Shown here: positions 35,932 through 63,085 of the stretch, piece after piece
Position numbering within the stretch: position 1 is the stretch's first letter
How the letters are laid out: each line of letters opens with the position of its first letter
Source of the DNA: an uncultured Nitrosomonas sp.
Lineage (GTDB): Bacteria; Pseudomonadota; Gammaproteobacteria; Burkholderiales; Nitrosomonadaceae
DNA length: 64,000 nucleotides
Direction: 5' to 3'
Assembly (NCBI GenBank): GCA_902826055.1
Contig: CADEDJ010000006.1
Coordinates: forward strand, 2,882 to 66,881
The notes under the pieces: generated by a model
Seen by the model: only the letters and a program-made list of their open reading frames with translations
Database searches by the model: none
Told to the model about the DNA's origin: nothing
Made by a program: the position numbers and the translations under genes

Positions 35932-36248
35932 TGCTCAACAATTTTATTAAAATAAAGGAAGGTATTCATTCTAGTGGTAATACCTATTGGAGACCGTGCA
36001 GCATTCAGTCGCAACAAATCGGCTATTGATATAATTTTTAAAGAGAATTCACTTGTTATCCATCATCAAGAAATTTTCTCGCTTTATATACCCGAAAGAC
36101 CAAGCGGTGCATTGCATCGCCTGGAAAAAAATAGTCCACCCCTACAGCAGCTTATTGAAAATTAGCCTTTTTCAATAAATGGTGTCCAGTTGTATTCAGT
36201 AATTCGATCATTACAGCTTGACATGACTGCCAATTTTCAACTGTTGCT

Positions 36249-45308: not shown

Positions 45309-45626
45309 GATAAATACTCCACAGAAATAAGCGATATTGGACTTGAAATGTTGAAAGCCGCAGTTGAACCCTTCAACATACGCGACAAGAGCATTCTTCT
45401 GATTTTCTGAAAGGTTATTCACAATTTCTTTTGCCACCCCAGAAATCCTAAAATCCGCTGATTTTAATCTGAAAAAACCAGCGCCTCATCAAATCTTTCT
45501 GCTAATCATCCTGCACTATGCCTTCTTAGCAAATCCATTTGGGAAAAACGATTCTGCGTAGTTATATAGCTAGATGCCCGAAAACTATCCAAACAAATCC
45601 CCTTAGATGCTGCTTACGCCAATTTC

Positions 45627-47324
45627 TCATAGATGCTCTCGGGCATGTTTGATAGCTGCTATCCCTTTTTTTGATTGATTTAAATGTATAGAACTCACTA
45701 TAAAAGGTATATTCTCAGCAATTTGGCCGTTTTCTAATCGAATACATTGATCTGCCAAATAAAAATAATGATTATCATGCGTGATAACGATGACTGTTTT
45801 TCCACGTGATTTTAGATCTTTCAATATCACGGTATAAAAAAGTTCTTTGAAAAGCGGGTCTTGATCCGCAGCCCATTCATCGAATACATAGAAAGGCCGG
45901 TCTTCGAGGTAAGCGGTTACGAGCGCCAGCCGTTTACGTTGTCCTTGAGACAGTTCTACAGACGAAAAAACGCCCTCATTTACAGTTACCTTATGGTCAA
46001 GTTGCAGTTCGGTCAAATATGTACGCGCTTTGTGATCAAGATTCTCGCCCATTAATCCCAGTAAACTTTCAAAAAGATAGAAATCAGAGAAAACAACAGC
46101 AAATTGTTGTCGGTAGCTTTCACGCATCATGTCATCGATTTCAATGCCATTAAGTTTGATATGGCCGCTTTCTGGACTATACAACCCTACCAACAACAGG
46201 CCTAACGTTGATTTTCCACTGCCATTACCGCCGGTTATAAATACTAATTCTCCAGGATGAAATGTTAAATGTAGTGGTCCTAAAGTAAATTTATGATCAT
46301 CACCTTCGCGAATGTATTGATGGGTAACTGCTATTAACTCGAGTTTTCCCGGAGACACAGAAGCCTCAGCAGGTTTCAATCCGTTTGATACCTCCGTTTG
46401 TTCAGTAAGGTCTTTTTGCAGGTGATTAATTTTGTCAATGGCTACCTTTGCTCGGCTGAAAGTTGGCAAATCACTTAATATCGTCGTCAAGGGTGCCATC
46501 ATATAAAGCAAAGTCAACGTAAAGCCCGATACAATCTCCTTGGTAATTGTCTCCCAATTACTGGCTACAAAGAGAATGAATCCAACAAGAAAATATAAAC
46601 ATGCTGTTCCAGCCATAGCAGCAAGAATAAATAACGTCATCGCAGAAATGATCCCTTGCCGGTAAGCCTCTGCTGTGGAATAGAGCACATCATCAAGAAA
46701 TGCTTTTTTTCTTTCATGATGAAGCTTTATTTCTTTTATTCCGTAAATGAGGCTCCTAAAATGCGCAAACAAGGTGTCATTCTGCTCACGAGCAGCTCGT
46801 AATGGCTTAATTGCGCTTCGTGTACCCAGTTGATAAGTCAAAATACCCAGCAACATAACAACAAGAACAATCATGAATAATTGCCATGATAACCAGCCAA
46901 GATAAAACATGCACCCTAATACCCAGGAGATATTAATGCACATTTGCGGAAGTAATTGAAAGGATTCAACGAGTACCGCAACATCTTCAGTCAAGTTTGC
47001 CATTAATCTGGGTGCACCGAGTTGCTGTAGTAAACGCAACGGTGCGCTGATAATACGATGACTGAGTTGCAGCCGTAAATCCCGCGCTGCTGTTTGTCCT
47101 GCGCGCATGATGATAATTGTTGAAAAAATTTGCGACAGTATGACTACTACTCCAAGACTAACAAAAAGCAAAATTGTCAGATGTATATTGGATGTCGTTG
47201 CATGCAGTTCAGTATTGATTAAACCAATTAAGGCTGCACTTCCTAAGCCACTCACAATGCCCATTATTACAGCAAACAAAATACTGATTCGAGATCGCCC
47301 AATGAGATGAAAAACAATATCCAT
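45627..47324 (-). CDS. Cyclic peptide/siderophore export ABC transporter (PvdE/SyrD/YojI family)
   Basis: TM domain with GIKEIKL; GGNGSGKST; LSQGQRKRLAL; FDEWAADQDP. Confidence 0.93.
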   Translation of the reverse strand: MDIVFHLIGRSRISILFAVIMGIVSGLGSAALIGLINTELHATTSNIHLTILLFVSLGVVVILSQIFSTIIIMRAGQTAARDLRLQLSHRIISAPLRLLQQLGAPRLMANLTEDVAVLVESFQLLPQMCINISWVLGCMFYLGWLSWQLFMIVLVVMLLGILTYQLGTRSAIKPLRAAREQNDTLFAHFRSLIYGIKEIKLHHERKKAFLDDVLYSTAEAYRQGIISAMTLFILAAMAGTACLYFLVGFILFVASNWETITKEIVSGFTLTLLYMMAPLTTILSDLPTFSRAKVAIDKINHLQKDLTEQTEVSNGLKPAEASVSPGKLELIAVTHQYIREGDDHKFTLGPLHLTFHPGELVFITGGNGSGKSTLGLLLVGLYSPESGHIKLNGIEIDDMMRESYRQQFAVVFSDFYLFESLLGLMGENLDHKARTYLTELQLDHKVTVNEGVFSSVELSQGQRKRLALVTAYLEDRPFYVFDEWAADQDPLFKELFYTVILKDLKSRGKTVIVITHDNHYFYLADQCIRLENGQIAENIPFIVSSIHLNQSKKGIAAIKHAREHL

Positions 47325-47468: not shown

Positions 47469-50400
47469 TCAGTGTGAAAAATTATCTTGAGAAGACTGCT
47501 TGATTGACCCGCTGCGTTGCAAATACGACAAATAAACATCAATTAAATGCCAATCTGTTCGCGGATAATCAATGCCACTAGCCGCTAATACTTGCTCAGT
47601 ATAATCCGTGTTATATTCTTTCAACACCGTACCCGATACATGATCATCAATAACTTTCTTCTGCAATATGGGGAGTAACGAATATAGTGGATGTTCGCTA
47701 GACTCTTTGACGGTTTGGGTTACATTTTCGAGCCAGTCAGCGTATGGTACTCGTTCAACTCTATACCCCAAGGTATTGATCCAATCAATCAAGTCATCGC
47801 TCATAATGGGACACCTATTACTGAAATGAAATGCTTTACCCATTGCTTGCGGTTGGCGAGAAAGATATACAATCGCTTTGCTGACATAATCAACCGGCAC
47901 AATATCAAAGTGATCTTGAATTGCTGGCGCTTTACCTATCTCTATACAACCTCTAATAAGCCGGCAAAGAAAATCATTCGTATTCCATGCTCCGGTTATA
48001 CTATGCCCCCCGACCGTCGCAGGTCTATGAATCGTAATTGGTAATCCACGATTGGCTGCAGTCCTAATCAACTTTTCCGCTACCCACTTACTTTGACTGT
48101 AACCATCCCCCATTTCCACAGTAGAATCCGGAAAATCATCTTCAACAAAACCACCTAAATAAGAAGGTTCCCGTGTACCGAATATCGACAAAGTAGAAAC
48201 ATAGTGCACAGGCTTAGTCTTTCCAGCACATGCTAATCGCAATACTTCCTGAGTTCCAATTACATTGGCTGCTTTCAAAGCTGCATAGGGTTGAGTGAAA
48301 TTAACTTGTGCCCCATTGTGATAGATTGCTTCAATTTGATCCGCCAATTTGTTAAATTGCCATGGAGAGAGACCTAATGACGGTTTGGATAAATCTCCAC
48401 ATACCAGACTAATTCGATTCATCAAACTGGAATGGTCGATTCCATACCCGTTTAATACCTTTCGTAATTTGTCAAAGGCTTCGCCAATTGATTCCGCTCG
48501 AATCAGGCAATGTACATGAGCTGTTGTTTGTTGCAATAATTCAACTAATAAAAATGCACCAAGAAAACCGGTAGCTCCGGTTAACAATATTTCACGAGGT
48601 AGTAAATAATCGGAAACCAAATCTCCATTGGGTTGAATCGATAAATCCAGTTGCGCCTCAGCATGTAAATTCACATCACTCGATTCCTGTTCCAATAAAA
48701 ATGTTTCTCTTCCTTCGATAATCTCTGCTAATTGCGCAATGGTCGGTCGCATAAAAATTACATTGACTGGTAAGTTGAGATTAAATTGTGCGTTTATTTT
48801 GAGAATTGCTTTTACAGTTAGAATTGAATGACCGCCTAATTCAAAAAAATTATCGTACACGCCGATCTGATCGATACCCAATAATTCTGACCAAATTTCA
48901 ACCAATGCTTGTTCCGTGAAACTTTTGGGAGGCTGATAATTATTTGTAATAAATTGACTGACACTTCTCGATAGCAGCACATTGCGATCAATCTTGCCGT
49001 TTGGCGTCTGTGGCATCGCATCCAGAAAAATAAGAATTGAAGGAATCATATACTCAGGCAAGAGCTTTTGTAGCTTGGCCCGTACATTTTCTTCATTTGG
49101 ATAGACTTTATTTATAATAGATTGCGGTACACAATATGCAAATAAACGAAGATCGCCAGGCTTGAACTCCTTTGCCAGAACCACGGCTTCACGAATTTCA
49201 TCCAATTGCATCAAGCGAAACTCTATTTCACCAAGTTCTATTCTGAAGCCACGAATCTTGACTTGATTATCCACTCTCCCCAGAAAATTAAGTTGCCCAT
49301 CAATTCGATAACAAGCCAAATCTCCAGTTTTATACAAACAAGACCCATCTTCTCGAAATGGGTTTGGAATAAAACGCTCCGCAGTTTGATCGGGATGATT
49401 CAGATACCCCTGAGCTATCCCTTCGCCACCGATATAAATTTCACCCTTCACTCCCCATGGTACAAGATTAAGAAATTCATCCAGCAGATAAACCTCAGCA
49501 TTAGCAATGGGGTATCCAATTGAAACAACATCATCAGCATTATCTAACTCCAGTCGGCATGCAGTTGACCAGACTGTGCCCTCTGTTGGGCCATATTCAT
49601 TATATAAATCAGCAGCCGGTAAAACTTCGAAATGCTTGTTAACAAGGGTTGATGGACAAGATTCTCCGGCCACTATGACAGTTCTGAGAGAAAGCAACTT
49701 CTCCCTCTTCTGCTCTAAAATTAACTGATAAAAAGAGGGTAACGTTAATAAGTGAGTTACTTGTTTTTCTTCAACTTCTTTAACCAAGCTTAGTGGATCC
49801 CTCAACTTCTCTTCGTGAAGTAGACATAGGCACCCACCTTGGGTTAGTGTCCAGAAAATACCAGCGACAGAACTATCAAACGCAAAAGAGGGTAACAGTA
49901 AAAAACACCCAACGGGTTTCTCATAAAAACAAAAACGAGCCGATGTGGAATGCACAACATTTCGATGACTGATTCTAACCCCTTTTGGCTTTCCAGTTGA
50001 TCCGGAGGTATAGATCATATAGGCAAGATTCTGTGCAACACTAGAACGACGTAAATCCCCCTCACACTGCTTGGAAATAACATGCTTTTTATCCAATAAA
50101 TCGATGACTTTAACCCTATCAGGTATCAATTGATGTGAATCACTCAGTGTCAAAATAACTTTTAATTTCGCATCGTTCACCATATAGTGAATGCGATCCT
50201 CAGGGTAATGAGGATCGATCGGTAAGTAAGCGCCACCTGCTTTGAGAATACCTAAGATGGCGACGATCATCTCTAATGAGCGCTCGATGTATATGCCCAC
50301 TAGCATATCCGGCTTTACCCCTTCACCAATTAAAAAATGCGCGAGCTGATTGGCCTTATGATTTAGTTCACCATAAGTCATTTGCTGTGCCGCAAAAACC

Positions 50401-53400
50401 GCAGCCACGGCATGTGGATTTTTCGCAGCTTGTTCTTCGAATAAGTGATGAATGCATTGCTCGGAAGGATAATCTTTTTTGGTGTTATTCCATTCTATTA
50501 GCTGTTTCTGACGTTCTTTTTTTGGCAGAATACTTAATGTACACATCGCCGTATTAGAGTTATCAATCGCTTCAAGCAATCGTTCGAGTATGTTGTATAG
50601 GTAACTGTTAATGCGTTGAGGATCAATTGATGATTGAACCTGTGTTGTCATTTGAAAACTATCGCCAAAGTCATCGATTGACAGTGAAATCGGATAGTTA
50701 CTACGTTCTTCACTTGCCAGCAGTTTAATGCCCGACCAGGCATCTTCTTTTGCGATTGTCTGAATAGCTTTTGGGGTGTGACGATAGTTAAGTAATGCTG
50801 AAAATAGAGGTGTCGGCGCAGGCACTCCGCTACAGCGCTGTGCCGTAGCAAGCGACACGTACTCATGATCAAGCAACTCTGCCAGGAGTTTATGCATTTT
50901 CCGTACGCTATCCTGTACACGCATTGCATCCACCTTGAAATGAATAGGCAGCGTATTAATGAACACACCCAACATTTGACCTCCTTCATCAAATCCTTGC
51001 ATGCGTCCAAATAATAACGTACCGAATACAACTTCTCTGTTACCGGTAGTTTGTGCCAACAGTTGCGCCCAAGCAAGGTGAAATATACTTGCTGCACTTA
51101 CACTTAATGAACGTGCAGTGGTATAAATTTTCTTAGCAAGTTTTTCGTCTACATCTAACGTTGCTTCTGCGATATCGACTCCATCCCCTTGTACATCCAT
51201 TAAGCCAAAAGGAGCGGTCGGCTCACTCACATGTTCCAGCATTTTGCGGAAAAACAATTCATGCGCTTCAAGTTTTATGCCCATTCTTGTTCGAGCAACA
51301 TAATTTCTAAAGGGAATTGCTTGTTTAAGCTCGCTTGACCGTCCCATAAGATGGATTTGCACTTCTTTTAATAACGCCTCCACGGCTTCATGGTCGAGAA
51401 TCAAGTGATGAACAAGTATCAATAACAACCAGCAGTGTTGTTCGGGATCATATGCTACATGCGCGCTTAGTAACGGTGCTTTACATAACTCAAATTTGAA
51501 AGTACGCGGGTTAAATCTCTCATGCAGTTGCTTGGTAATATTTCCTAAAATTGGGTCTAATTCAATTTCAGTAACTGTGAGTGCAACCTGACGCAATACA
51601 ACCTGCACCGGTGTTGATAGTTCCTCCCACACAATGGCTGTTCGTAATACATCATGCCGATTGATGGCAATTTGCAGCGCATCAATAAAATCATCTAACT
51701 TTTCATGTGTCTCAAACGACAGCAAAGAAGACAATAAATAAGGATCACCGCTTCTACTCATCATATGATGAAATAAAATTCCTTCCTGGAATGGCGTCAA
51801 TGAATAAATATCTTGTATATTTCTTATACCGCCAGGTATGCGTTCTACAATATTGTTAATTTCTGATTGATTGAGCGAAACTAAAGGAAGCATTTCAGGT
51901 GTGATCTTTTCACATTGCTCAGAAATTGCATTACCGGGTACAGCAACGGTAACGGTGCGACCTTTTCTTAATGTTGCAACAAACTCAGCCAATGTACGTG
52001 TAGAAAACAAAGCACTAGCATCTGTATCAAACCCTTGCCGCCGAATGCGCTCGATTAAGCTCAATGATAAAAGTGAATGTCCACCAAGCTCGAAAAAATT
52101 GTCATTAATGCCAACTTGCTCAAGCCCAAGTGCTTCAGCCCAGAGCGATGCGATGATTTTCTCGTTTTGCGTACGCGGTGCCACAAACTGATGAGCAAAT
52201 TGCGCCGAAATATCAGGCGCTGGCAGAGCATTACGATCCAATTTACCGTTCGCACTGATTGGCAAGTGATCCATAACAACAAATGCAGAAGGAATCATGT
52301 AATCAGGTAAATGCTCTTTTAGATACACTTTCAGATCATTGCACTCTAGATTCCGTGCATTTTTAGCTGCCACATAAGCAATTAATCGTTTATCTCCTAG
52401 CGTATCTTCACGTACGATTACTGCAGCATTATGTATATTCGCATATTGCAGTAATGCGGTTTCGATTTCTCCTAACTCGATCCGAAAACCTCGAATCTTG
52501 ACTTGATAATCCGTGCGGCCGATATATTCGATCGCTCCATCATCACGATATCGAGCTAAATCACCAGTACGATAAAGACGCTCGCCTGTCTCAGCGAAGG
52601 GATTTGGAATAAAGCGTTCAGCCGTTAGCGCGGCGCGATTTAAATAACCACGCGCCAGCCCGATTCCTCCAATATATAGTTCACCCGCCACACCCACTGG
52701 AACCGGATGCAGGCCGGCATCAAGCAGGTAAATTTGAATATTGTCGATTGGGTGGCCTATTGGAACCGATGCGTTGCCACACTTCAGCTTACATGCCCAG
52801 AAAGTCACATCGACAGAAGCTTCAGTCGGTCCGTACAAGTTATGGAGTTTTGCAGGAATTATTTCGAGAAATTTATATTGCACTGCGACCGGCAATGCTT
52901 CCCCGCTACAAAATACCTGGCGCAATGATTGGCAAGATGATGCCTGATCTGATTCTAAAAATGCGGCAAGCATGGATGGAACGAAATGTAGCGTTGTTAT
53001 TTGCGCTTGATTAATCGCTTCAATCAGACGATCACTGTCTTTGTGCGCACCAGGCGCCAGCATGATTAATCGGGCACCCACCATTAAAGGCCAGAAAAAC
53101 TCCCAAACGGATACATCAAAACTAAACGGTGTTTTCTGCAGTACTTTGTCAGAATAATCTAATGCATACTGTTTCTGCATCCACGCCAATCGATTGACTA
53201 CGCCTTGATGCGCTAATGCTGATCCCTTAGGCTTTCCCGTCGAACCTGACGTGTAAATGACGTAGGCTAAATTGTGCGGATGAATTCTATGTGTAGGATT
53301 TTCATCGCCAAATTGTGCAATAGCATTCGCTTCAGCCGACATATCAACCAATTTCTGATTACCTGGCAAAATATCTCGCGTAGCACTATGCACCAATATT

Positions 53401-56400
53401 ACTGTCGGACATGCATCCGCTACCATGAAAGCTATCCGCTCTGCCGGATAATCCGGATCAATGGGCAAATATGCACCACCTGCTTTGAGGATAGCTAAAA
53501 TACTAACAATCATCTCCAGTGACCGCTCAACACATAGACCTACCAATACCTCCGGACCGACACCTCTGTCTTTCAGGTAATGAGCCAATTGATTGGCTTT
53601 TTTATTGAGTTGATCATAAGTAAGCTGCTGATTTTCATAGCTGACTGCGGTGAAGTCCGGTGTTTGGTCGACTTGAGTTTCAATCAAATCATGAATACAC
53701 TGCCGATCGGGGTAATCGGCTGTAGTCTGATTCCAGCGTATTAGCAATTGCTGTAATTCAGATTGACTCAGCAAGGATTTTTCATCGTACCGGTTCACCG
53801 GTTCTTCAGCGATTTCCGTCAGTGCACTGATATAGTATTCACTGATTCTCTGCAAATGCGCTTGGTCTAATCTTGCTTGATCACCCTGCAATGTAAGTTC
53901 GATGACATCCGTCTCGACTTCCAAACTAAATGTAACTTCCAAAGCAAAATTAGGTTGAATTGGATTATTCCATTCAATGATTTTGACTTGATCAGAATTT
54001 ACATAATCTTTTCCGTTGTGGTAATGCAAGTAATTGAATGTCGTATCAAAAATTCTATTTCCGCCATGCAGCTTCTGTAAGTTTGCCAATGGATAATAAC
54101 GGGCTTTCAACATTCTTTGCTCCATCCTAAAAACCTGATGGATCAAAGCACCCCATGTTCCTCCGGATAACTGAATGACCAACGGGAGCGTGTTCAAAAA
54201 CACACCCAATACTTGATCACTTCCTAATTCTTCAGGACGCACACTCGTAACAAGGCCAGTCGTAATTTTTGTTTCACCATACAAAAGACTGAGTATTCGT
54301 AGATGTACTGCTAGTAATACACTTTTGAGCGGTATCGATTGCGATTGCGCAAACTGCTTCAATTTCTGAGACAACTCGGCTGTTAGTCGCAATTCAACCT
54401 CAGGCCAATTTTGCGCCATAGGCTTAACGGCATTGGATACTTGGATCAGATGAGGAAAACTGCTCAGGGTGGCACCGTCCAACCAGCGGCTCCAGAATTC
54501 TTGATCACTCTTGGATTGCAACGCGTTTTGCTCGCGTATCACAAGATCACGCATAGCGTTTGGTAGCGGGCTGACTGCAATGACCTTATTGTGTTGAACA
54601 GCAAAATGTTGTTGAAAAATCTCGATTAACAGCGAAACCAGGCTCCAACCATCGAGAATTGCATGATGCGCTGCAATTGAGAACTGAAGTTCACTATCTT
54701 CCAAATAATACACCGAGAATTTAATCAATGGCAATTTTGTAACATCAAAATAGTCTTGGTTTAATTTCCGTATATGGGTTTTTAGAATTTGTTCTTGTTG
54801 TGATGGCGGCAAACCGCGAAGATCTTCAGTTATTAGAGAAATAACGCCCTGCCGATGTACTAATTGCAGAGGCTTACTGAAACCGCCTAAATCAAAAGTT
54901 GTACGTAAAATTGCATGACGTGAAAAGATTTGTTCCAATGCTGCTTGTAAGCATCCTGGATCAAGTGCACATTTCAATTTGATATTATCGATCACATGGT
55001 ATGCACCCAATTCCTGCTGACTGTGAAAAATCATGCCTGCTTGCATTGCAGTCAGTGGATACGCATCTTCGATATCTCCAGGAAGATTCGATTTATCTTC
55101 GGCCGGAATAAGTGCATATGGGCTCAGTGATGTTACTGGTGCTGAATCTAATGTATCTTGAGTTAAATTCTGACCAAGCGAGCGAATTGTGCCGCATCGA
55201 TAAAGTTGATCCATCGGGAGCGTAATTCCTTGCTCTTTTGCGAGACCAACCACTTGAATACCGCGAATTGAATCGCCACCCAGCGTAAAAAAATTGTCAT
55301 CAATTCCGATACGTTCCAACCGTAAAACTTTTTCCCAAATTTGGCATAAAATCTGTTCGATTGGGTTACGAGGCGCTACATATTGATTAGCCATTTGATT
55401 ACAAATATCCGGTTCCGGCAAGGCCTTGTGGTTTACTTTACCATTCGCAGTTAATGGCAAGGTATCTAAAAACACAAAAGCAGCAGGCACCATATAATCC
55501 GGCAAGCATTTCTGAAGATACGTTCGTAGACTATCAATTCTCGTATCCAGCTCACCGGCCTCGTCACTTGCTATATAAGCGATTAGCCGTTTCTCACCTT
55601 CAGCATTTTCGCGAGCAACAACTGCTGATTCTCGGACCCAAGGATGTTGTGACAGTAAATTCTCAATTTCCCCTAACTCAATACGAAAACCTCTGATTTT
55701 TACTTGCTGGTCGATACGTCCGAGATATTCAATATCGCCACCGTCTCGGTAACATGCCAAATCACCGGTTCGGTACAATCTCTGACCATCGCGACTACTG
55801 AAAGGATGTGGAATAAACCGGTCTGCGGTTAAATCGGCCCGATTGAGATAGCCTCGCGCTAAACCAGCGCCCCCGATATAAAGTTCTCCTGCAACACCGA
55901 CGGGAACAGGATTATGCTGTTGATCGAGAATAAACGCTTGTAAATCGGAAATTGGATGTCCTATCGTACTACATCCGGAGTTTTCTGCATCAACCTGAGA
56001 AAGTGGTGCCCGTGTTACATGAACAGTAGTTTCCGTGATGCCATACATATTCACTAACTGCGGCTTTATATCCCCATGACGCTCAAACCACTTTTGAAGT
56101 TTGCCGAGTTCGAGTGCTTCTCCACCAAATATGATCAGGCGCAATGCAAGCGGTATCTGCATCAAGGCATATTTATCAACATGATCCAATTGATAAAAAC
56201 TGGTGGGTGTCTGATTGAGTACGGTAACACCCTGCTGTTGCAATAATTGATGAAAAGCTTCGGGCGAGTGCTTGATCCGATCCGGCACAACAATTAATCG
56301 TCCGCCATATAATAATGCGCCCCAAATTTCCCATACAGAGAAATCAAAAGCATAAGAGTGAAACAAGGTCCAAACATCTTCATTGTTAAAATGATATTCT

Positions 56401-59400
56401 TGCTCAGTAATTGCAAACAGTCGCCTAACATTGTGATGTGTAACCATTACTCCTTTAGGTCTACCGGTTGAACCCGAGGTATAAATGACGTAAGCAAGAT
56501 TGTTGGCCGCGGCAGTTGAAATCGGATTGCTATCAAAATAATCAGTTTCAGCCGCTAAATTATGATCCAAACTGAGTTTCTCAGGCGCATCAGGCAGCAA
56601 TTCCATGAACTCACTCTGCGTCACAATCACCTGTGGCTTGGCATCGTCAATCATAAAAGCGATACGCTCTTGTGGGTAACTAGGATCAATCGGCAAATAA
56701 GCACCACCTGCTTTAAGTACACCTAAAATACCGATAATCATTTCCACGGAGCGTGGCAAAAATAATCCGACCAATACTTCCGAGCAGATTCCTTTCGCAC
56801 GTAGACTATGCGCAATCTGATTGGCATGGGCATTAAGTTCGCTATACGTAAGCTGTCTATCCTCAAAAACAACCGCAATCGCGTTCGAATTTTTTCTTAC
56901 CTGCTGCTCAAATAATTCGTGAATGCATTGGTCCTGCAAACAATCCGTCTTGATCCTATTCCATTCAACTAATAGTTGTTCTTGTTCAGATTCTGGCAGT
57001 ACATTAATAGTACATACCGCTTTCTGCGGATTTGCGGTTAATGCGTCGACCAAACCTGTTAGTGCAGTTTGCATATACCGCATGATGCGCTGCGGTTCGA
57101 TCGGAGATTGCACTTGCATCGTCAAGCCAAAAGCTGTCCCATAATCGTCAATAGATAGTGTCAATGGATAATTGGTACGTTCATCCTCATTAAGCACTTC
57201 GATGCCCATACTTTTCCACAGTGACGCAGTTGTTTCGGAAACATCATTTACTGCAGCGGTACTATGACGATAATTTAGCAAAGCCGAGAATAAAGGGGCG
57301 GGCGGCGGAACCGCGCTACACCGCTGAGCAAGCGATAACGAAGCATGTTCATGACGCATCAAATCAGCCAATAGTTGATGCATTTTTCGCACACCGGTTG
57401 TAACTGTGATTGCATTGACGTCAAAACGAACAGGTAACGTATTGATAAACATACCCAGCATTCGGTCGGCGTCAGCAACATTTTGTGTACGGCCAAATAA
57501 AACTGTGCCGAACACCACGGTTTCCTTAGCAGAAATTAGAGACAATACTTGTGCCCAAGCCAAATGAAATATGCTCGCAGCACTTACGCCTATTAATTTT
57601 GCACATGCACGTATACGTTGATTCAAATTAGCTTCCAAATCAACTTTAGCTTCAACAACTTCTGAACCATCTCCCTGAATATTAAGCAATCCAAAAGGGG
57701 CGGTCGGCTCATCAACATTACCCAATAGCTGGGTAAAAAAAGCTTCGTGCTCTTCGGATTTAATTCCGAAACGTGTTTGGGCCACAAAATTTCTGAAGGG
57801 AAGTGGAAGTGGAAGTTGTTCAGATCGATTCAATAAATGAATACTCACTTCTTTAAGAACAGTTTCCATGGCTACATGATCAAGCGCCAAGTGATGTTCT
57901 AATATCAATAAAATCCAGCGATTCTTATACTCATCCCAAGTCAGATAACCTTGCATTAATGGTGCTTGACGAATATCGATCCTGAAATGCTCAGAATCGA
58001 ATTTCTTTCGTAATTGCTCGGCTGGATCACCTAATATTGGATCAAAAGTTACTTCTGTAATGGGCAGAACTACTTCACGCAACACAACTTGTACCGGCAC
58101 AGACAATTCTTCCCAAAGAATTGCCGTACGTAAAATGTCGTGCCGATTAATGACAGCTTGAACTGCGCTCAAGAAACAATCCACCTGGTAGCGATCCTCA
58201 AATGCCATCAAAGAAGATAGTACATAAGGATCACCATCTCGAGTGATCAAATGATGAAAAAGAATGCCTTCCTGAAAAGGAGTTAACGGATAAATATCTT
58301 GGACGTTTCTCGCACCGCCCGGAACATGTTGGATAATGCTATCGACTTCACTTTGTTTTAGTGTAATTAAAGGCAGCATTTCCGGTGTAATACGTTCACA
58401 ACATGGCGGTATCAAATTATCAGGTATGTCTACAACGCGGTTCTTATTCAACCCTGCAGCAAATTCCTGCAATGTTTGGCAAATAAAAAGCGATCGCACT
58501 TCAGCATGTAATCCTTGGCGGCGCATCCGTTCAATTACCGTCATCGCCAATAAGGAATGACCGCCGAGCTGGAAGAAGTTGTCGTGGATGCCGATTTGAT
58601 CTATTCCCAGGACTTCTGCCCAAATGATTGCAATCTTTTCTTCGATCTCATTGCGCGGTGCCACATACTGATCAATCATGCGGCCATCAATAGTCGGCTC
58701 CGGTAACGCCTTGCGGTCGATCTTGCCATTAGCGTTCAATGGCATCTCATCCAATAGAACAATGATTGATGGAATCATGTAATCAACCAGGTATGCTTTA
58801 AGATAGCTGTGCAGTTCTGTAATTCCTAATTGCGCTTCATTACCCACCACATAAGCCACCAAACGTTGCGCGTCCGGTATCCTTTCTTCCCGCGCAACCA
58901 CCACTGCTTGTCTGATATCGGGATGCTGTAACAGCGCGGCTTCTATCTCTCCTAACTCAATACGCAATCCCCGGATCTTCACCTGATGATCGCTGCGGCC
59001 TAAGTGTTCAATGTTTCCATCTAATAGATAGCGCACCACGTCACCCGTCTTGTATAGACGCTCTCCCGGCTGGTGACTGAATGGGCTAGGAACAAAACGC
59101 TCTGCAGTTAATTCCGGCCGATTAAAGTATCCCCTCGCCACCCCTGCTCCACCAATATAAAGCTCACCAGCAACGCCGATCGGAACGGGATTTAGCCACC
59201 GATCCAAAACATAGGAACGGGTGTTGGCGAATTGTTGCCCGATCGGAACCAGTTCTTGAGTCAACACTTTTACCGGCGGGGATTCAAAATATGTACTATC
59301 TATCGTCGTTTCTGTTAATCCATAGGAATTGACCAGGCGCGTCGTTTGGGCGCATAGTTTTGAAAATTGCTTGTACTCCTCCATATACCAACGATCAGAA

Positions 59401-61805
59401 CCGCAAATCAGCAGGCGCATAAAGTCCAAACGGCACTGCGTGTCATGCAGATAATCCACTAATGCGCGCAGCACGGCCGGTACAAATTCAGCAACCGTGA
59501 TAGGCTCACTTTGCATCACTGCATACAGCCGATCCGGCTGTAACAGCGTTTCCCGCGGGCATATCACCAGTTTTCCCCCTGAGCACAACGCCCGTATCCA
59601 ATCGCCTGCAAACACATCAAAGGTATAACGCGCCATTTGAAGATGCACATCACTGACACCTAATTCATAAGCTTCTTGCCAGGCATAGTATTGGTTGATC
59701 AAATTGCCGTGTGTTACCCCCACACCTTTAGGAATACCTGTTGTACCCGAGGTATACAGCATGTACGCCAATTGTTGTGGATTCAACGCAATGTTTGCAG
59801 GAGTCTCGGTTGAATATTCGGCACTTATCTCTTGGTCCAGGTAAAGGGTGTGATAGCGTTCCGGTATCTTCCCGGTTAACGTCGATGAAGTCAGTACCCA
59901 CTCTACTCCTGCATCCTGCAAAATCAGTCGCAGCTTTCCTTCCGGTAACTCCGGTTCAATTGGTAAGTAAGCGCCTCCTGCCTTGAGAATACCGAGTATG
60001 CCCACTATCATTTCCAGCGAGCGTTCAATGCAGATGCCAACCAAAACTTCCGGCCCAATTCCCTGGCTGCGCAGAAAGTGCGCTAATCGATTGGCTTTTT
60101 GGTTGAGCGCTTCATAACTCAGTTGCTTGTCTTCAAAAACTAGCGCTACTGCATCAGGGTGCTTCGTGACTTGCTCTTCAAATAGTTGATGGATGCATTG
60201 CCCGACGGGATAGGCCACTTCATTACCGCTCCATTCAATTAACAGTTGATTGCGTTCCACTGTCGTCAACAGCGGCAATTCACTGATCAGTTGATTCGGA
60301 TCGATCGTAATGCTTTCCAGCAGTAGGCCAAAGTGCTCGGCAAATCTTTCGATGGTCGGGCGATCGAATAGGTCTGTATTGTAGCTATACTGAATCTCCA
60401 GGCCGCGCCCGCTTTCAGTGATCTCCAGATCTAAATCAAATTTCGAGGTACCAACTTCCATTACCTCGGGAATAATCTTTAATCCTTCGATTTCCAGCGT
60501 CGTTTCCGGTGTATTCTGTAACGCCAGCATGACCTGGAACAATGGGTTGTGACTCATGTCACGTACTGGCGATAATTCTTCAACCAGCTTCTCAAACGGT
60601 AGATCTTGGTGCGCTTGTGCACCCAGGCAAACTTCTTTGACTCGCTTGAGCAGTGCTATAAAAGTTGGGTTACCTGATAAATCCGTTCGCAATACCAGTG
60701 TATTGATAAAAAAACCAATCAATCCTTCGATTTCCAGCCGGTTACGATTGGCAATGGGTGTGCCTACACATAAATCATCTTGACCACTGTAGCGGGATAG
60801 CAAAATGTTAAACGCAGCCAGCAGCACCATGAATAACGTGGCGTCCTGCTGCCGCCCAAGTTGCTTTAATTGCTCGGTTACAGATAGTGGAATGGTGGTA
60901 TATAAGGTCGCACCCCGGTAGCTTTGTACCACCGGCCGGGGATAATCGGTCGGCAGCTCGAGAATTGCCGGCGCTCCGGCCAGGTGTTGTTTCCAATAAT
61001 TGACTTGCTGTTCCAGCCGTTCGCCTTGCAACCACTTGCGTTGCCAGATCGCATAATCGGCATATTGAACTGTCAGTTCCGGTAATGGTGAAGCACGTCC
61101 CGCCCGGTAGGCTTCATACAGCGCGATGAATTCCCGAATCAGGATCGCTGTCGACCAGCCATCGGAGACTATGTGGTGCAAGGTAAATAACAAAATGTGT
61201 TCGGCTTCTTCCGGGGGTGACGATTCTCGCAGAAAAAGCAAAGTCGCTCTAACCAACGGCCCTAGCAATAGATCAAAAGGTTGCTGGATATCTTCTTCCA
61301 AATACCGTCGAATTTCCGATTCACGCCGTCCGTCCGTTAAATCCCTTAAATCGACCCCCTTGATCTCCACATGCAATGACGATGCAATGACCTGCTCCGC
61401 CTTGCCATCCACTGCATTAAATGTCGTCCTCAATACTTCATGACGGCGGATAATCTCGTTTATACTCCTCTCCAAAACCTCTACATCCAACTCCCCTACC
61501 AGGCGTACCACACCCGGCATGTTATAAAACGTCCCGCCCGGCTCAAATTGATCCAAAAACCATAACCGCTCCTGCGAATAGGATAAGGGTAAGTTACTAT
61601 CACGCGGATAAGTCCGTAAAACATCATTCTCATCTGTATCAATTTGACGTAAGTACTCAATCAACTTCAATTTATGCGTTTGTAGACCGATTTTAAGTTC
61701 CGGAGTCATTGCATGCGGAGGAGCCTTTCCTCGAAGATCGCCATTCTCCAAGTATAAATAGATATTTCTTTGTTTTAACTCCGTTAAGAGATCAACTAAA
61801 TTCAT
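47469..61805 (-). CDS. Four-module NRPS with N-terminal docking domain and terminal reductase
   Basis: TubC_N-like dock; C (HHIVSDG)-A1-T(GGHS); dual E/C (HHLITRDGD, HHLALDH)-A2-T(GGDS); C (HHAILDG)-A3-T(GGHS); dual E/C (HHMMSRSGD, HHLILDH)-A4-T(GGHS); R domain (TGATGFLG, YSQSKW). Hand-read codes DVGEIGSIDK, DFWNIGMVHK, DVWHFSLVDK, DSALIAEVWK. Confidence 0.97.
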   Translation of the reverse strand: MNLVDLLTELKQRNIYLYLENGDLRGKAPPHAMTPELKIGLQTHKLKLIEYLRQIDTDENDVLRTYPRDSNLPLSYSQERLWFLDQFEPGGTFYNMPGVVRLVGELDVEVLERSINEIIRRHEVLRTTFNAVDGKAEQVIASSLHVEIKGVDLRDLTDGRRESEIRRYLEEDIQQPFDLLLGPLVRATLLFLRESSPPEEAEHILLFTLHHIVSDGWSTAILIREFIALYEAYRAGRASPLPELTVQYADYAIWQRKWLQGERLEQQVNYWKQHLAGAPAILELPTDYPRPVVQSYRGATLYTTIPLSVTEQLKQLGRQQDATLFMVLLAAFNILLSRYSGQDDLCVGTPIANRNRLEIEGLIGFFINTLVLRTDLSGNPTFIALLKRVKEVCLGAQAHQDLPFEKLVEELSPVRDMSHNPLFQVMLALQNTPETTLEIEGLKIIPEVMEVGTSKFDLDLEITESGRGLEIQYSYNTDLFDRPTIERFAEHFGLLLESITIDPNQLISELPLLTTVERNQLLIEWSGNEVAYPVGQCIHQLFEEQVTKHPDAVALVFEDKQLSYEALNQKANRLAHFLRSQGIGPEVLVGICIERSLEMIVGILGILKAGGAYLPIEPELPEGKLRLILQDAGVEWVLTSSTLTGKIPERYHTLYLDQEISAEYSTETPANIALNPQQLAYMLYTSGTTGIPKGVGVTHGNLINQYYAWQEAYELGVSDVHLQMARYTFDVFAGDWIRALCSGGKLVICPRETLLQPDRLYAVMQSEPITVAEFVPAVLRALVDYLHDTQCRLDFMRLLICGSDRWYMEEYKQFSKLCAQTTRLVNSYGLTETTIDSTYFESPPVKVLTQELVPIGQQFANTRSYVLDRWLNPVPIGVAGELYIGGAGVARGYFNRPELTAERFVPSPFSHQPGERLYKTGDVVRYLLDGNIEHLGRSDHQVKIRGLRIELGEIEAALLQHPDIRQAVVVAREERIPDAQRLVAYVVGNEAQLGITELHSYLKAYLVDYMIPSIIVLLDEMPLNANGKIDRKALPEPTIDGRMIDQYVAPRNEIEEKIAIIWAEVLGIDQIGIHDNFFQLGGHSLLAMTVIERMRRQGLHAEVRSLFICQTLQEFAAGLNKNRVVDIPDNLIPPCCERITPEMLPLITLKQSEVDSIIQHVPGGARNVQDIYPLTPFQEGILFHHLITRDGDPYVLSSLMAFEDRYQVDCFLSAVQAVINRHDILRTAILWEELSVPVQVVLREVVLPITEVTFDPILGDPAEQLRKKFDSEHFRIDIRQAPLMQGYLTWDEYKNRWILLILEHHLALDHVAMETVLKEVSIHLLNRSEQLPLPLPFRNFVAQTRFGIKSEEHEAFFTQLLGNVDEPTAPFGLLNIQGDGSEVVEAKVDLEANLNQRIRACAKLIGVSAASIFHLAWAQVLSLISAKETVVFGTVLFGRTQNVADADRMLGMFINTLPVRFDVNAITVTTGVRKMHQLLADLMRHEHASLSLAQRCSAVPPPAPLFSALLNYRHSTAAVNDVSETTASLWKSMGIEVLNEDERTNYPLTLSIDDYGTAFGLTMQVQSPIEPQRIMRYMQTALTGLVDALTANPQKAVCTINVLPESEQEQLLVEWNRIKTDCLQDQCIHELFEQQVRKNSNAIAVVFEDRQLTYSELNAHANQIAHSLRAKGICSEVLVGLFLPRSVEMIIGILGVLKAGGAYLPIDPSYPQERIAFMIDDAKPQVIVTQSEFMELLPDAPEKLSLDHNLAAETDYFDSNPISTAAANNLAYVIYTSGSTGRPKGVMVTHHNVRRLFAITEQEYHFNNEDVWTLFHSYAFDFSVWEIWGALLYGGRLIVVPDRIKHSPEAFHQLLQQQGVTVLNQTPTSFYQLDHVDKYALMQIPLALRLIIFGGEALELGKLQKWFERHGDIKPQLVNMYGITETTVHVTRAPLSQVDAENSGCSTIGHPISDLQAFILDQQHNPVPVGVAGELYIGGAGLARGYLNRADLTADRFIPHPFSSRDGQRLYRTGDLACYRDGGDIEYLGRIDQQVKIRGFRIELGEIENLLSQHPWVRESAVVARENAEGEKRLIAYIASDEAGELDTRIDSLRTYLQKCLPDYMVPAAFVFLDTLPLTANGKVNHKALPEPDICNQMANQYVAPRNPIEQILCQIWEKVLRLERIGIDDNFFTLGGDSIRGIQVVGLAKEQGITLPMDQLYRCGTIRSLGQNLTQDTLDSAPVTSLSPYALIPAEDKSNLPGDIEDAYPLTAMQAGMIFHSQQELGAYHVIDNIKLKCALDPGCLQAALEQIFSRHAILRTTFDLGGFSKPLQLVHRQGVISLITEDLRGLPPSQQEQILKTHIRKLNQDYFDVTKLPLIKFSVYYLEDSELQFSIAAHHAILDGWSLVSLLIEIFQQHFAVQHNKVIAVSPLPNAMRDLVIREQNALQSKSDQEFWSRWLDGATLSSFPHLIQVSNAVKPMAQNWPEVELRLTAELSQKLKQFAQSQSIPLKSVLLAVHLRILSLLYGETKITTGLVTSVRPEELGSDQVLGVFLNTLPLVIQLSGGTWGALIHQVFRMEQRMLKARYYPLANLQKLHGGNRIFDTTFNYLHYHNGKDYVNSDQVKIIEWNNPIQPNFALEVTFSLEVETDVIELTLQGDQARLDQAHLQRISEYYISALTEIAEEPVNRYDEKSLLSQSELQQLLIRWNQTTADYPDRQCIHDLIETQVDQTPDFTAVSYENQQLTYDQLNKKANQLAHYLKDRGVGPEVLVGLCVERSLEMIVSILAILKAGGAYLPIDPDYPAERIAFMVADACPTVILVHSATRDILPGNQKLVDMSAEANAIAQFGDENPTHRIHPHNLAYVIYTSGSTGKPKGSALAHQGVVNRLAWMQKQYALDYSDKVLQKTPFSFDVSVWEFFWPLMVGARLIMLAPGAHKDSDRLIEAINQAQITTLHFVPSMLAAFLESDQASSCQSLRQVFCSGEALPVAVQYKFLEIIPAKLHNLYGPTEASVDVTFWACKLKCGNASVPIGHPIDNIQIYLLDAGLHPVPVGVAGELYIGGIGLARGYLNRAALTAERFIPNPFAETGERLYRTGDLARYRDDGAIEYIGRTDYQVKIRGFRIELGEIETALLQYANIHNAAVIVREDTLGDKRLIAYVAAKNARNLECNDLKVYLKEHLPDYMIPSAFVVMDHLPISANGKLDRNALPAPDISAQFAHQFVAPRTQNEKIIASLWAEALGLEQVGINDNFFELGGHSLLSLSLIERIRRQGFDTDASALFSTRTLAEFVATLRKGRTVTVAVPGNAISEQCEKITPEMLPLVSLNQSEINNIVERIPGGIRNIQDIYSLTPFQEGILFHHMMSRSGDPYLLSSLLSFETHEKLDDFIDALQIAINRHDVLRTAIVWEELSTPVQVVLRQVALTVTEIELDPILGNITKQLHERFNPRTFKFELCKAPLLSAHVAYDPEQHCWLLLILVHHLILDHEAVEALLKEVQIHLMGRSSELKQAIPFRNYVARTRMGIKLEAHELFFRKMLEHVSEPTAPFGLMDVQGDGVDIAEATLDVDEKLAKKIYTTARSLSVSAASIFHLAWAQLLAQTTGNREVVFGTLLFGRMQGFDEGGQMLGVFINTLPIHFKVDAMRVQDSVRKMHKLLAELLDHEYVSLATAQRCSGVPAPTPLFSALLNYRHTPKAIQTIAKEDAWSGIKLLASEERSNYPISLSIDDFGDSFQMTTQVQSSIDPQRINSYLYNILERLLEAIDNSNTAMCTLSILPKKERQKQLIEWNNTKKDYPSEQCIHHLFEEQAAKNPHAVAAVFAAQQMTYGELNHKANQLAHFLIGEGVKPDMLVGIYIERSLEMIVAILGILKAGGAYLPIDPHYPEDRIHYMVNDAKLKVILTLSDSHQLIPDRVKVIDLLDKKHVISKQCEGDLRRSSVAQNLAYMIYTSGSTGKPKGVRISHRNVVHSTSARFCFYEKPVGCFLLLPSFAFDSSVAGIFWTLTQGGCLCLLHEEKLRDPLSLVKEVEEKQVTHLLTLPSFYQLILEQKREKLLSLRTVIVAGESCPSTLVNKHFEVLPAADLYNEYGPTEGTVWSTACRLELDNADDVVSIGYPIANAEVYLLDEFLNLVPWGVKGEIYIGGEGIAQGYLNHPDQTAERFIPNPFREDGSCLYKTGDLACYRIDGQLNFLGRVDNQVKIRGFRIELGEIEFRLMQLDEIREAVVLAKEFKPGDLRLFAYCVPQSIINKVYPNEENVRAKLQKLLPEYMIPSILIFLDAMPQTPNGKIDRNVLLSRSVSQFITNNYQPPKSFTEQALVEIWSELLGIDQIGVYDNFFELGGHSILTVKAILKINAQFNLNLPVNVIFMRPTIAQLAEIIEGRETFLLEQESSDVNLHAEAQLDLSIQPNGDLVSDYLLPREILLTGATGFLGAFLLVELLQQTTAHVHCLIRAESIGEAFDKLRKVLNGYGIDHSSLMNRISLVCGDLSKPSLGLSPWQFNKLADQIEAIYHNGAQVNFTQPYAALKAANVIGTQEVLRLACAGKTKPVHYVSTLSIFGTREPSYLGGFVEDDFPDSTVEMGDGYSQSKWVAEKLIRTAANRGLPITIHRPATVGGHSITGAWNTNDFLCRLIRGCIEIGKAPAIQDHFDIVPVDYVSKAIVYLSRQPQAMGKAFHFSNRCPIMSDDLIDWINTLGYRVERVPYADWLENVTQTVKESSEHPLYSLLPILQKKVIDDHVSGTVLKEYNTDYTEQVLAASGIDYPRTDWHLIDVYLSYLQRSGSIKQSSQDNFSH
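58545..59273. repeat. Copy 1 of a >=729-bp direct repeat (A-domain C-terminus plus T domain)
   Basis: No differences seen by eye versus 63272-64000; translated segments identical. Confidence 0.9.
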
Positions 61806-63085
61806 ACCGCATCTCCCGATTGTCTATTAGCTGCTACACTTGTCCGCTGCGTATTCACTTTTAGTTTATAAATCCGCCGCTTCTGTATCCAACGTATTAC
61901 TCCCGTAAAATAAATGATGGGGCACGCAAGACCGCAAAGAAAAATAAGAATACGCCCCATCCAGCCGAATGCATTGCCAGAGTGCAATGGCCATTGCCAA
62001 TCCAAAAATGTCTCTCCGGCGCTACGGCGTGTATCAGGTGCACGTACATCCAAAACTTCACCGCTATATTGATCGATTGCAATATGCCGCTCGCACCAAA
62101 AAGTGCTTAATCCGGGAATATTTTTTTGTGTAATTACATAAACCCCTGTATCGCTATCCGGTACGGAAATACTCTTCAATTCTCCATCTGGAAATTGATC
62201 TGCCGCAATAGTCCAAGCCTGATCGGCTCGGATTGGTTTCATTGCAGCAGATGAAATCGAAACAAGGTGATGCGGCGAATCGCGAGTAGCGGGAGAAAAT
62301 TGTTGCGTAACCCAAACAAAGGGGTCATTTAGATTCATGTACACGCCGGATAAAAGCAATGCACCCAATACCACACAGAAATAACAAGAGAAAGTTTTGT
62401 GTAAATCGAAATTTAATCGTATCGAGCCAGCATTCCATTTAATCGTCAATGCCTTACGCCATTGCCCTGTTTTCGGCCACCAAACAATTAACCCAGTCGT
62501 CAATGAAATCAACAAAAGTAAAGCAATGATGGCTACCAACACAATACCATTGCTTCCTAACAGCAAACTGAAATGAAGTTGAAAAATAAAATCAATCAGA
62601 TAATCGGGGAACCATTCATCTTCGCTGTAGCTTCTAACACCGGTTACCTTTGCTTGATAAGGATTAACAAAAATGCGTTGCCAATCTCCAGATTCCTGAT
62701 CAGCATAGATTGCAAATACACCTTCTTTATTGCGCGGCCCATAAATCATAGAAATGCTACTGTTTTGAGCAGCGACCTGGTCAGCCGCATGAATGATTTG
62801 ATCAATCGGATAAGGTATGGATTTACCGTCATCCGCAACATATCGGGGCACTGACACTGTCAACAGATCAGGATTCAACCATTCGTCAATTTCTTGGAAA
62901 AAAACCAAAATGCTGCCGGTTAAGCCGAGTATGACTAAAAATGCACCAATCCACAGCCCCAGATAAAAATGAATATCGAGCCATAACTGACGCCAAACCT
63001 GCTTACGCTTATTGTCAACGGTGGAATAATTTTTCATGCAATTGATTGGTAATACATGCTTTTTTAAAAGCTCTGATTGAATCAA
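61802..63085 (-). CDS. PepSY-associated TM helix protein (FoxB/PiuB-like metallophore reductase)
   Basis: IHFYLGL, LTGSILVF, VNPY, QLHFSL, FDLHK, IDQYSG, PLHSG; stop overlaps NRPS start (ATGA). Confidence 0.9.
   Translation of the reverse strand: MIQSELLKKHVLPINCMKNYSTVDNKRKQVWRQLWLDIHFYLGLWIGAFLVILGLTGSILVFFQEIDEWLNPDLLTVSVPRYVADDGKSIPYPIDQIIHAADQVAAQNSSISMIYGPRNKEGVFAIYADQESGDWQRIFVNPYQAKVTGVRSYSEDEWFPDYLIDFIFQLHFSLLLGSNGIVLVAIIALLLLISLTTGLIVWWPKTGQWRKALTIKWNAGSIRLNFDLHKTFSCYFCVVLGALLLSGVYMNLNDPFVWVTQQFSPATRDSPHHLVSISSAAMKPIRADQAWTIAADQFPDGELKSISVPDSDTGVYVITQKNIPGLSTFWCERHIAIDQYSGEVLDVRAPDTRRSAGETFLDWQWPLHSGNAFGWMGRILIFLCGLACPIIYFTGVIRWIQKRRIYKLKVNTQRTSVAANRQSGDAV

Follow-up and report, generated by a model that had tools for sequence, protein, structure and literature searches.

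A reductase-terminated synthetase of a Nitrosomonas-type ammonia oxidiser and its predicted seven-module lipopeptide line

We analysed a 64,000-nucleotide stretch (C6:2882-66881, hereafter the window) of an uncultured Nitrosomonas sp. genome (3.02 Mb, 116 contigs, 99.85% complete) and found that the large nonribosomal peptide synthetase (NRPS) gene at 47469..61805, here called NRPS3, encodes the last enzyme of a predicted seven-module lipopeptide line; the host is an ammonia oxidiser of Nitrosomonas type. The predicted product is acyl-(beta-OH?)His-His-Orn-D-Orn-Dhb-D-Ser-His-ol/al (Orn, ornithine; Dhb, dehydrobutyrine; ol/al, C-terminal alcohol or aldehyde). The function that we favour, at a probability of roughly 0.55-0.6, is that of an exported His/beta-hydroxy-His lipopeptide metallophore for iron or possibly copper. 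The domain order, the adenylation signatures, the condensation-domain subtypes and the reductase motifs are established from the sequence, and from these we infer all chemistry past domain identity. A literature search returned no paper describing the cluster or its product.

Domain architecture of the terminal synthetase

NRPS3 is an uninterrupted open reading frame (ORF) of 4778 amino acids (aa) in which Pfam detected four Condensation, four AMP-binding and four PP-binding domains, one NAD_binding_4 domain and an N-terminal TubC_N domain, with E-values of 0 to 1e-12, well outside chance. Motif positions arrange these as docking-C-A-T-C-A-T-C-A-T-C-A-T-R (C, condensation; A, adenylation; T, carrier; R, reductase; E, epimerization). 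An earlier note on this DNA had described a single NRPS with a terminal R domain here, as we also find, but it missed that the fourth A domain is readable (His) and that NRPS3 makes up just the final third of a line of seven modules starting beyond the window. The docking domain implies a hand-over from an upstream NRPS protein. The synthetases of the line and the domains of NRPS3 are listed below; positions beyond the window are given on L001.

L001 11264-16966, minus strand: NRPS1, 1900 aa, FAAL-ACP-C-A(His)-T (FAAL, fatty acyl-AMP ligase; ACP, acyl carrier protein)
63101..64000, continuing to L001 9646, minus strand: NRPS2 (3' end in the window), 2181 aa in total, C-A(His)-T-C-A(Orn)-T
47469..61805, minus strand: NRPS3, 4778 aa, docking-C-A(Orn)-T-E/C-A(Thr)-T-CmodAA-A(Ser)-T-E/C-A(His)-T-R, assembly-line modules 4-7
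61644..61796, minus strand: TubC_N-type docking domain (aa 4-54), Pfam PF18563, E 1.4e-12
60258..61598, minus strand: C1 (aa 70-516), HHIVSDG, L-clade, 99% identity to the second C domain of NRPS2
58710..60173, minus strand: A1 (module 4), DVGEIGSIDK = Orn, naive MAFFT register DVGELCSIDK
56988..58298, minus strand: C2, dual E/C (aa 1170-1606), HHLITRDGD and HHLALDH, predicted to convert Orn4 to D-Orn
55425..56903, minus strand: A2 (module 5), DFWNIGMVHK = Thr
55161..55358, minus strand: T2 carrier, LGGDS, feeding the CmodAA domain; the other three NRPS3 carriers have LGGHS
53760..55070, minus strand: C3, CmodAA-type (aa 2246-2682), motifs HHAILDG and KSVLLAVH, predicted to dehydrate Thr5 to Dhb
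52230..53681, minus strand: A3 (module 6), DVWHFSLVDK = Ser
50517..51812, minus strand: C4, dual E/C (aa 3332-3763), HHMMSRSGD and HHLILDH, predicted to convert Ser6 to D-Ser
48990..50438, minus strand: A4 (module 7), DSALIAEVWK = His/beta-OH-His
47472..48590, minus strand: terminal thioester reductase (aa 4406-4778), Pfam NAD_binding_4 E 9e-70, best PDB match MxaA 4U7W

The pairing of dual E/C domains with a terminal R domain is rare: 28 of the 78 best-matching loci have dual E/C domains, and only those from Nitrosomonas also end in R. The earlier note had set this combination against the usual Pseudomonas lipopeptide design, a contrast that is misplaced in one respect, the host being Nitrosomonas-like, while the rarity itself stands.

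Predicted substrate specificity of the adenylation domains

Specificity codes were read from a MAFFT alignment of all seven A domains of the cluster to GrsA-PheA, the reference being checked residue by residue against PDB 1AMU (residues 231-526). The seven signatures are, in order, His, His, Orn, Orn, Thr, Ser and His. For A2 (Thr) and A3 (Ser), the codes that the earlier note had extracted by hand came out letter for letter from the 1AMU-based alignment. Its Orn code for A1, DVGEIGSIDK, was recovered in the register common to the orthologues of this domain, with two positions depending on register: eight of the ten are fixed (DVGE[L/I][C/G]SIDK), and positions 299 and 301 hinge on how 'LLICGSD' is laid over GrsA 'LITAGS'. 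The MAFFT register gives L/C in the window copy and I/G or V/G in the equal-length orthologous segments of two relatives, G111 and G126; the choice between L/C and I/G is an alignment ambiguity, not a sequence difference.

Among published Orn signatures, the exact code DVGEIGSIDK denotes plain Orn in ten characterised domains. A 2025 compilation gives it for GrsB, TycC, PpsA, BreC and LatC (PMC12283262, Orn-signature supplementary table), and it is also reported for the Orn domain of a polycyclic tetramate macrolactam synthetase (PMC3992020). It lies one residue from the polymyxin code for diaminobutyrate (Dab), DVGEISSIDK. We considered Dab at this position and found it less likely given the ten plain-Orn precedents; Orn is further preferred because the 99.85%-complete genome holds no Dab transaminase above the TIGR00709 cut-off.

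Published signature tables assign the A4 code, DSALIAEVWK, to His (BlmX, JagD, PvdJ) and to beta-OH-His (HcsF and HcsI of histicorrugatin, GlmG of glidomide), so the residue that the earlier note had left as "X" resolves to His. In the first His domain of the line (in NRPS1), about 40 extra aa are inserted between motifs A8 and A10 of the C-terminal subdomain (aa ~1685-1735); the other two His domains do not have this insertion, which might be a contact site for the CmlA-like hydroxylase encoded next to it.

Condensation domains and the predicted D- and dehydro-residues

To classify the C domains, we built a hidden Markov model from the seven in the cluster, gathered 619 C-type domains from related loci and computed a maximum-likelihood tree of 100 of them (quick search, LG+G4, SH-aLRT supports). 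Class labels follow motif or context, namely E followed by DCL, HHxxxxxGD, or [KR]SVLLAxH, and not experiment. C2 and C4 carry the extra motifs HHLITRDGD (aa 1184) and HHMMSRSGD (aa 3346), about 120 aa before their core motifs HHLALDH and HHLILDH; the second deviates from HH[I/L]xxxxGD in having M after HH. Both fall inside a clade of 25 domains (SH-aLRT 100, stem length 1.22), apart from LCL and DCL domains, which takes in all 22 sampled motif-bearing dual E/C domains, many of them from Pseudomonas lipopeptide loci. The proposal that the second and fourth modules of NRPS3 begin with dual E/C domains is thus borne out, with no clustering of either domain among LCL types, and it points to a D configuration of Orn4 and Ser6. 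Only these two of the seven C domains in the line are dual E/C: C1 and both NRPS2 C domains lie in the L-clade, and the one after FAAL-ACP groups with an N-terminal C domain from Methylovulum. No solved dual E/C structure turned up in a PDB search, the best match being the C domain of McyB, which we take to be DCL-type.

The third C domain of NRPS3 is of another kind. Its best PDB matches are the McyA C domain (8JBR, E 6.8e-93), which presumably acts on a Ser-derived donor residue, and the dehydrating CmodAA domain of AmbE (7R9X, E 4e-47), with SrfA-C at about 1e-23. The published CmodAA consensus before C5 is [K/R]SVLLAAH, with conserved K/R and H (PMC11342130), and KSVLLAVH in C3 fits it. 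C3 also keeps HHxxxDG (HHAILDG) and, in 'ARYYPLA' aligned to AmbE 'HRRHPLA', one of the two Arg before C6; it sits in a 100%-supported clade with CmodAA-motif domains, and the module upstream has a Thr code. On the strength of its relatives, motif and clade, C3 is predicted to turn Thr5 into Dhb, so that the "(Dhb/Thr)" of the earlier note narrows to Dhb as the favoured residue. Compared with the CmodAA domains of McyA module 2, AmbE, Crz1-C2 and albopeptide, C3 is alike in its closest solved relatives, the motif, HHxxxDG, at least one Arg before C6 and a Thr-loading upstream module, but its identity to AmbE is modest and the preceding T domain carries GGDS. This LGGDS of T2 is the variant usual before E domains; the two carriers preceding the dual E/C domains have LGGHS.

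Terminal reductase and chain release

The last 390 aa of NRPS3 match MxaA 4U7W over their full length (query aa 7-398, E 1.1e-95). The R domain follows the last T domain and keeps GxxGxxG (GATGFLG), the Arg after beta-2, the Thr (in 'YVSTLS') and YxxxK (YSQSK). It thereby shares the short-chain dehydrogenase/reductase fold motifs of MxaA (myxalamid) and other terminal thioester reductases, but MxaA ends a polyketide synthase/NRPS hybrid and releases a polyene alcohol, whereas the predicted substrate here is a peptidyl-His thioester. We take MxaA to reduce by four electrons to the primary alcohol; closeness to it hints at, without proving, an alcohol, which we consider more likely than an aldehyde as the release product. 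A histidinol or histidinal at the C-terminus is not known to us from any characterised product, although this was not searched exhaustively. An NRPS in a Nostocales cyanobacterium metagenome-assembled genome (MAG; L062, 17475-25313) has the same ending, A(His, DSALIAEVWK)-T-R, its R domain sharing 45% identity with that of the window, so a terminal His with a reductase is not confined to Nitrosomonas.

Gene organization of the cluster

The contig runs 14 kb past the window and ends 393 bp beyond an MbtH-like gene. In minus-strand order, the cluster comprises MbtH, a type II thioesterase (TEII), NRPS1, a CmlA/FrsH-family hydroxylase, NRPS2, a PepSY_TM gene, NRPS3, an ABC exporter and a decayed acylase. 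The hydroxylase is a diiron beta-hydroxylase by its matches to 8A90 (E 4e-100) and CmlA (E 1e-91) and has the metal motif HGHHDH. The remaining features are as follows.

L001 17735-17968 (window-equivalent 77735-77968), minus strand: MbtH-like gene, 77 aa, upstream of the type II thioesterase
61802..63085, minus strand: PepSY_TM membrane protein, 427 aa, between NRPS2 and NRPS3, PF03929 E 1.1e-68, FoxB-like putative periplasmic metal/metallophore reductase
45627..47324, minus strand: fused ABC exporter, 565 aa, TIGR01194 cyclic-peptide export family (461.6 bits against a cut-off of 286.2), also found by Pfam
45443..45592, minus strand: relic of a PvdQ-like penicillin-amidase acylase, 50 aa, tblastn 56-58% identity to about residues 80-134 of the G126, G052 and G058 acylases
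42007..42708, minus strand: Sfp/HetI-type 4'-phosphopantetheinyl transferase (PPTase), 233 aa, Pfam ACPS, NCBIfam HetI-like below cut-off
58545..61589, no strand: direct repeat copy A, 3045 bp, 100% identical to copy B at window-equivalent 63272-66316 (L001 3272-6316), blastn self-comparison

At the upstream border, the longest TEII ORF (289 aa) overlaps the MbtH gene in another frame, so its true start is probably further downstream. We considered whether the cluster reaches upstream of TEII; this was ruled out by the insertion-sequence remnants and housekeeping genes found there in the sister genome G001. At the other end, the acylase is intact (~810 aa) at the same position in G052, G058, G111 and G126 (Penicil_amidase by Pfam on the G058 homologue), and the sister MAG has a different, C-terminal acylase relic (L002, ~30893-31643). 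A full-length acylase paralogue with 32-33% identity lies on contig C2 of the window's genome. The PPTase probably serves the carrier domains.

The 3045-bp repeat spans the C-A-(T) of both Orn modules, which are consecutive, with one copy on either side of the PepSY_TM gene; recombination between its copies would delete this gene and one module. In the C-domain tree, the two C-domain copies of this genome pair together, as do the two of G111, which suggests concerted evolution or gene conversion, or possibly an assembly effect in this draft.

Distribution among the Nitrosomonadaceae

Among named relatives, the MAG Nitrosomonas sp. JAMMSM_AOB_3 is the best match, sharing the gene order and 85% identity along the full length. 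T-R homologues of at least 49% identity occur in 10 of 190 family genomes (~5% of Nitrosomonadaceae), and among these 190 the fused four-module protein is found only in the window's genome and the sister MAG. The relatives G111 (a closed genome), G126, G058 and G052 instead encode the last module as a separate C-A(His)-T-R protein whose C domain is without the dual motif, and the remaining positions in G111 and G126 read His-His-Ser-Orn-Thr-Orn. The three His positions, the Orn-E/C-Thr-CmodAA core and PepSY_TM are kept wherever the contigs extend far enough to show them.

Two relatives have tailoring genes, of which the window has none, in the interval from the R-ending module to the exporter: in G111 (L088/L089 joined, 2778-6233), a glycosyltransferase of family-1-like type (458 aa) and a carbamoyltransferase resembling NodU/CmcH (680 aa), each assigned by eye only, and a methyltransferase with a weak Pfam match to carnosine-N-methyltransferase in G058 (L091, 8649-10133). 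Outside the family, a Methylovulum sp. MAG (L028, 3-31206) has a related His-rich NRPS line with three His modules, Ser and Thr modules and a TE-TE end (TE, thioesterase). It has a CmlA-like gene directly after its first His module and no PepSY_TM in view. In the tree, no sequences from outside Nitrosomonas lie closer to the window's starter C domain and CmodAA-type C domain than those of this MAG (for the CmodAA-like domain, together with that of L024).

Proposed biosynthesis

In the pathway we propose, FAAL would activate a fatty acid for condensation with His1, which would probably be beta-hydroxylated on its carrier. One His is probably hydroxylated, most likely the first, because the hydroxylase gene directly follows the first His module both here and in the Methylovulum relative. 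The chain would then be extended through His2, Orn3 and Orn4. The first dual E/C domain would invert Orn4 to D and add Thr5, the CmodAA domain would dehydrate Thr5 to Dhb while adding Ser6, and the second dual E/C domain would invert Ser6 to D and add His7. The NAD(P)H-dependent R domain would finally release a C-terminal histidinal or, more likely, reduce it on to histidinol. The logistics would resemble those of pyoverdine, with an acylated precursor, the ABC exporter and, in relatives, periplasmic deacylation, and the PepSY_TM reductase, co-transcribed with the synthetases, would deal with the metal complex.

Putative function and alternative explanations

Several features are consistent with a metallophore. 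In the PDB, the PepSY_TM protein matches only FoxB, a reductase of ferrisiderophores (7ABW, E 2.8e-18), four of its His aligning with FoxB His, and the PepSY_TM gene is kept inside the operon in the window, G001, G111, G126 and G058. Members of the PepSY_TM family reduce ferrisiderophores, and one subfamily is tied to copper supply (PMC13038864); beta-OH-His is in turn a recognised chelating unit (PMC12971057). The TIGR01194 exporter and the penicillin-amidase acylase that follows it, intact in relatives and a relic here, are further indications, and TonB-dependent receptors lie 5-18 kb downstream of the cluster in G111. We assign PvdE, and also the lipopeptide-toxin exporter SyrD, to the same exporter family.

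Other observations weigh against this reading. No Fur-box-like site above background was found upstream of the operon in the window, G001 or G111 (matches of 12-13 of 19, the genome background being 0.65 per kb at 13 or more of 19). There is no TonB-dependent receptor beside the cluster in the window, and the cluster ORFs include none of the chelator-pathway markers Orn/Lys N-monooxygenase, Fe/alpha-ketoglutarate His/Asp hydroxylase or catechol genes. The acylase has decayed in this lineage, whose pathway may differ from that of its relatives, and two Orn, three His and a lipid tail would also fit a cationic membrane-active antibiotic. The product itself is subject to similar limits: gene order is the only guide to what the CmlA-like enzyme acts on, a two- or four-electron outcome of the R domain is not reliably readable from sequence, and dual E/C motifs are no guarantee of epimerisation, those of Pseudomonas lipopeptides not always being active epimerases.

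The one conserved 'palindrome' that emerged from the Fur scan was rejected as coding sequence of the MbtH-like gene. Another palindrome, TGTCGCATGTGACA (L001 18079-18092, window-equivalent 78079-78092), lies about 110 bp upstream of the MbtH start and is perfect in the sister genome (TGTCACATGTGACA); it is not Fur-box-like and may be a regulator site.

The same assembly line could instead make a cationic membrane-active lipopeptide antibiotic or surfactant, its Orn/His charge and lipid tail targeting the membranes of other bacteria and the ABC and RND (resistance-nodulation-division) pumps serving export or self-protection. In favour of such a compound are the two Orn and three His, the predicted D-residues and Dhb, the fatty-acyl start, the kinship of the exporter with SyrD, the RND tripartite pump nearby, and the lack of both a Fur box and an adjacent TonB receptor in the window; Nitrosomonas is also among the top 20 genera for cationic nonribosomal peptide gene clusters in a genome-mining paper (PMC6095874). 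We nevertheless judge this rather unlikely, since a FoxB-like PepSY_TM gene is retained mid-operon in all five genomes named above, a PvdQ-like acylase such as that of the relatives would strip the lipid needed for membrane activity, and three conserved His with a beta-hydroxylase after the first His module fit chelation better. Within the metallophore reading, a bolder version holds that the cluster family is a new class of His-based lipopeptide metallophores with copper as the main target, a 'chalkophore' of ammonia oxidisers. The key enzyme of these bacteria, ammonia monooxygenase, is copper-dependent. The related His-rich line with its CmlA-like hydroxylase occurs in a methanotroph, Methylovulum, dependent on the copper enzyme particulate methane monooxygenase, and the embedded PepSY_TM protein could be a cupric reductase, as proposed for CrpH. 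We regard this version as a long shot; if it is true, a diiron CmlA-type enzyme would for the first time be seen to make beta-hydroxy-His, and reductive release to yield a histidinol at the C-terminus.

Two further alternatives concern the release step and the integrity of the locus. Release as an aldehyde trapped by an Orn delta-amine, an option that the earlier note had raised, would give an imine macrocycle in the style of nostocyclopeptide, koranimine or lugdunin in place of a linear alcohol, an outcome that concerns release only and fits either function. A terminal R domain, two free Orn side-chain amines and an acyl-blocked N-terminus would allow it, and we hold it improbable in view of the closeness of the R domain to MxaA, which forms a primary alcohol, and of the carbamoyltransferase and glycosyltransferase beside the R-ending module of relatives, which would suit free hydroxyls; neither point is decisive. 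That the cluster is decaying or partly mis-assembled here and makes nothing appears very improbable. The acylase relic, the repeat at 100% identity, which a short-read assembler could have duplicated or collapsed, and the contig end just past the MbtH gene could be taken that way. Against this, the three NRPSs, the hydroxylase, PepSY_TM, ABC, TEII and MbtH are all intact ORFs with intact catalytic motifs, and the sister MAG has the same two-Orn-module layout around PepSY_TM, at 85% identity, on a contig of 912 kb. A near-identical pair of C domains flanks PepSY_TM in the complete genome G111 too, though the second module of NRPS2 there has a Ser code.

Comparison with known systems

The closest described compounds to the predicted metallophore are the corrugatin/histicorrugatin and glidomide lipopeptides, and the cluster lacks defining features of that family. 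Corrugatin, ornicorrugatin and histicorrugatin (Pseudomonas) and the glidomides (Schlegelella) are likewise N-acylated, of 7-8 residues, with a (beta-OH)His start, Orn or Dab, and Ser; the His code DSALIAEVWK is identical in HcsF, HcsI and GlmG, and histicorrugatin also ends in beta-OH-His. Unlike them, the present line has no beta-OH-Asp module, none of the seven signatures being an Asp code, and its hydroxylase is a CmlA-type diiron enzyme, not the Fe/alpha-ketoglutarate IBH_His, with no TauD-type enzyme among the cluster ORFs. Known corrugatin-type and glidomide lines use a starter C domain alone and thioesterase release, whereas here we find a FAAL-ACP start, reductase release, predicted Dhb formation by CmodAA and an ammonia-oxidiser host.

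With pyoverdine (PvdL, PvdE, PvdQ), the cluster shares a FAAL-ACP-C start as in PvdL, a TIGR01194 exporter, MbtH, TEII and, in relatives, an acylase after the exporter, but it has no Glu-Tyr-Dab chromophore modules, no PvdP/PvdO or hydroxamate genes were found in it, its acylase is a relic and its release is reductive. Cyclic lipopeptides of Pseudomonas (arthrofactin, viscosin and amphisin type) likewise use dual E/C domains of the same clade with HHxxxxxGD in place of separate E domains, but theirs is a tandem TE with a starter C domain, in contrast to the R end, the FAAL-ACP start and the two dual domains among seven seen here. The PepSY_TM protein, finally, has the architecture of FoxB/PepSY_TM reductases and of the copper-linked CrpH subfamily, including the four His aligned to FoxB, in keeping with the His conserved on both membrane faces of such reductases; its gene lies inside a biosynthetic NRPS operon, whereas CrpH shares an operon with a TonB-dependent importer.

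Neighbouring genes

An RND tripartite efflux system lies at 30183-38483 on the minus strand (OEP, 461 aa; HlyD-type, 397 aa; AcrB-type, 1042 aa), adjoining a 744-aa FG-GAP repeat protein, and may belong to the export of the compound. The G111 cluster likewise has FG-GAP and BNR-repeat neighbours on its downstream side, and in G058 the acylase is followed by an OEP/HlyD pair. Sulfotransferase-family genes lie at 7801-8769 (minus strand) and 40905-41879 (plus strand), the latter between the PPTase and the cluster's neighbours and kept in the sister MAG. A 326-aa protein at 23266-24246 (plus strand) has a cadmium carbonic anhydrase (CDCA, zeta-CA) repeat (E 5e-47). The CDCA family is known mainly from marine diatoms and is unexpected in a nitrifier.

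Possible implications for metal acquisition in nitrifiers

Dual E/C domains, a CmodAA domain and an R domain in one protein, together with a predicted reduced C-terminal His, make up an uncommon and testable NRPS design, in a cluster that is probably a metallophore variant of NRPS lipopeptides. The markers listed in the chelator-based metallophore rule do not include a diiron CmlA-type hydroxylase, and none of them is present in the cluster; such clusters would therefore probably escape chelator-based metallophore mining. Ammonia oxidisers are regarded as siderophore users and not producers, a survey having found 92.3% of the MAGs of ammonia-oxidising bacteria to be without siderophore synthesis. 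The intact, conserved cluster in ~5% of Nitrosomonadaceae genomes, with its embedded FoxB-like reductase, suggests that some nitrifiers make a compound of their own for acquiring metal, and such a metallophore would bear on the iron and copper limitation of nitrification.

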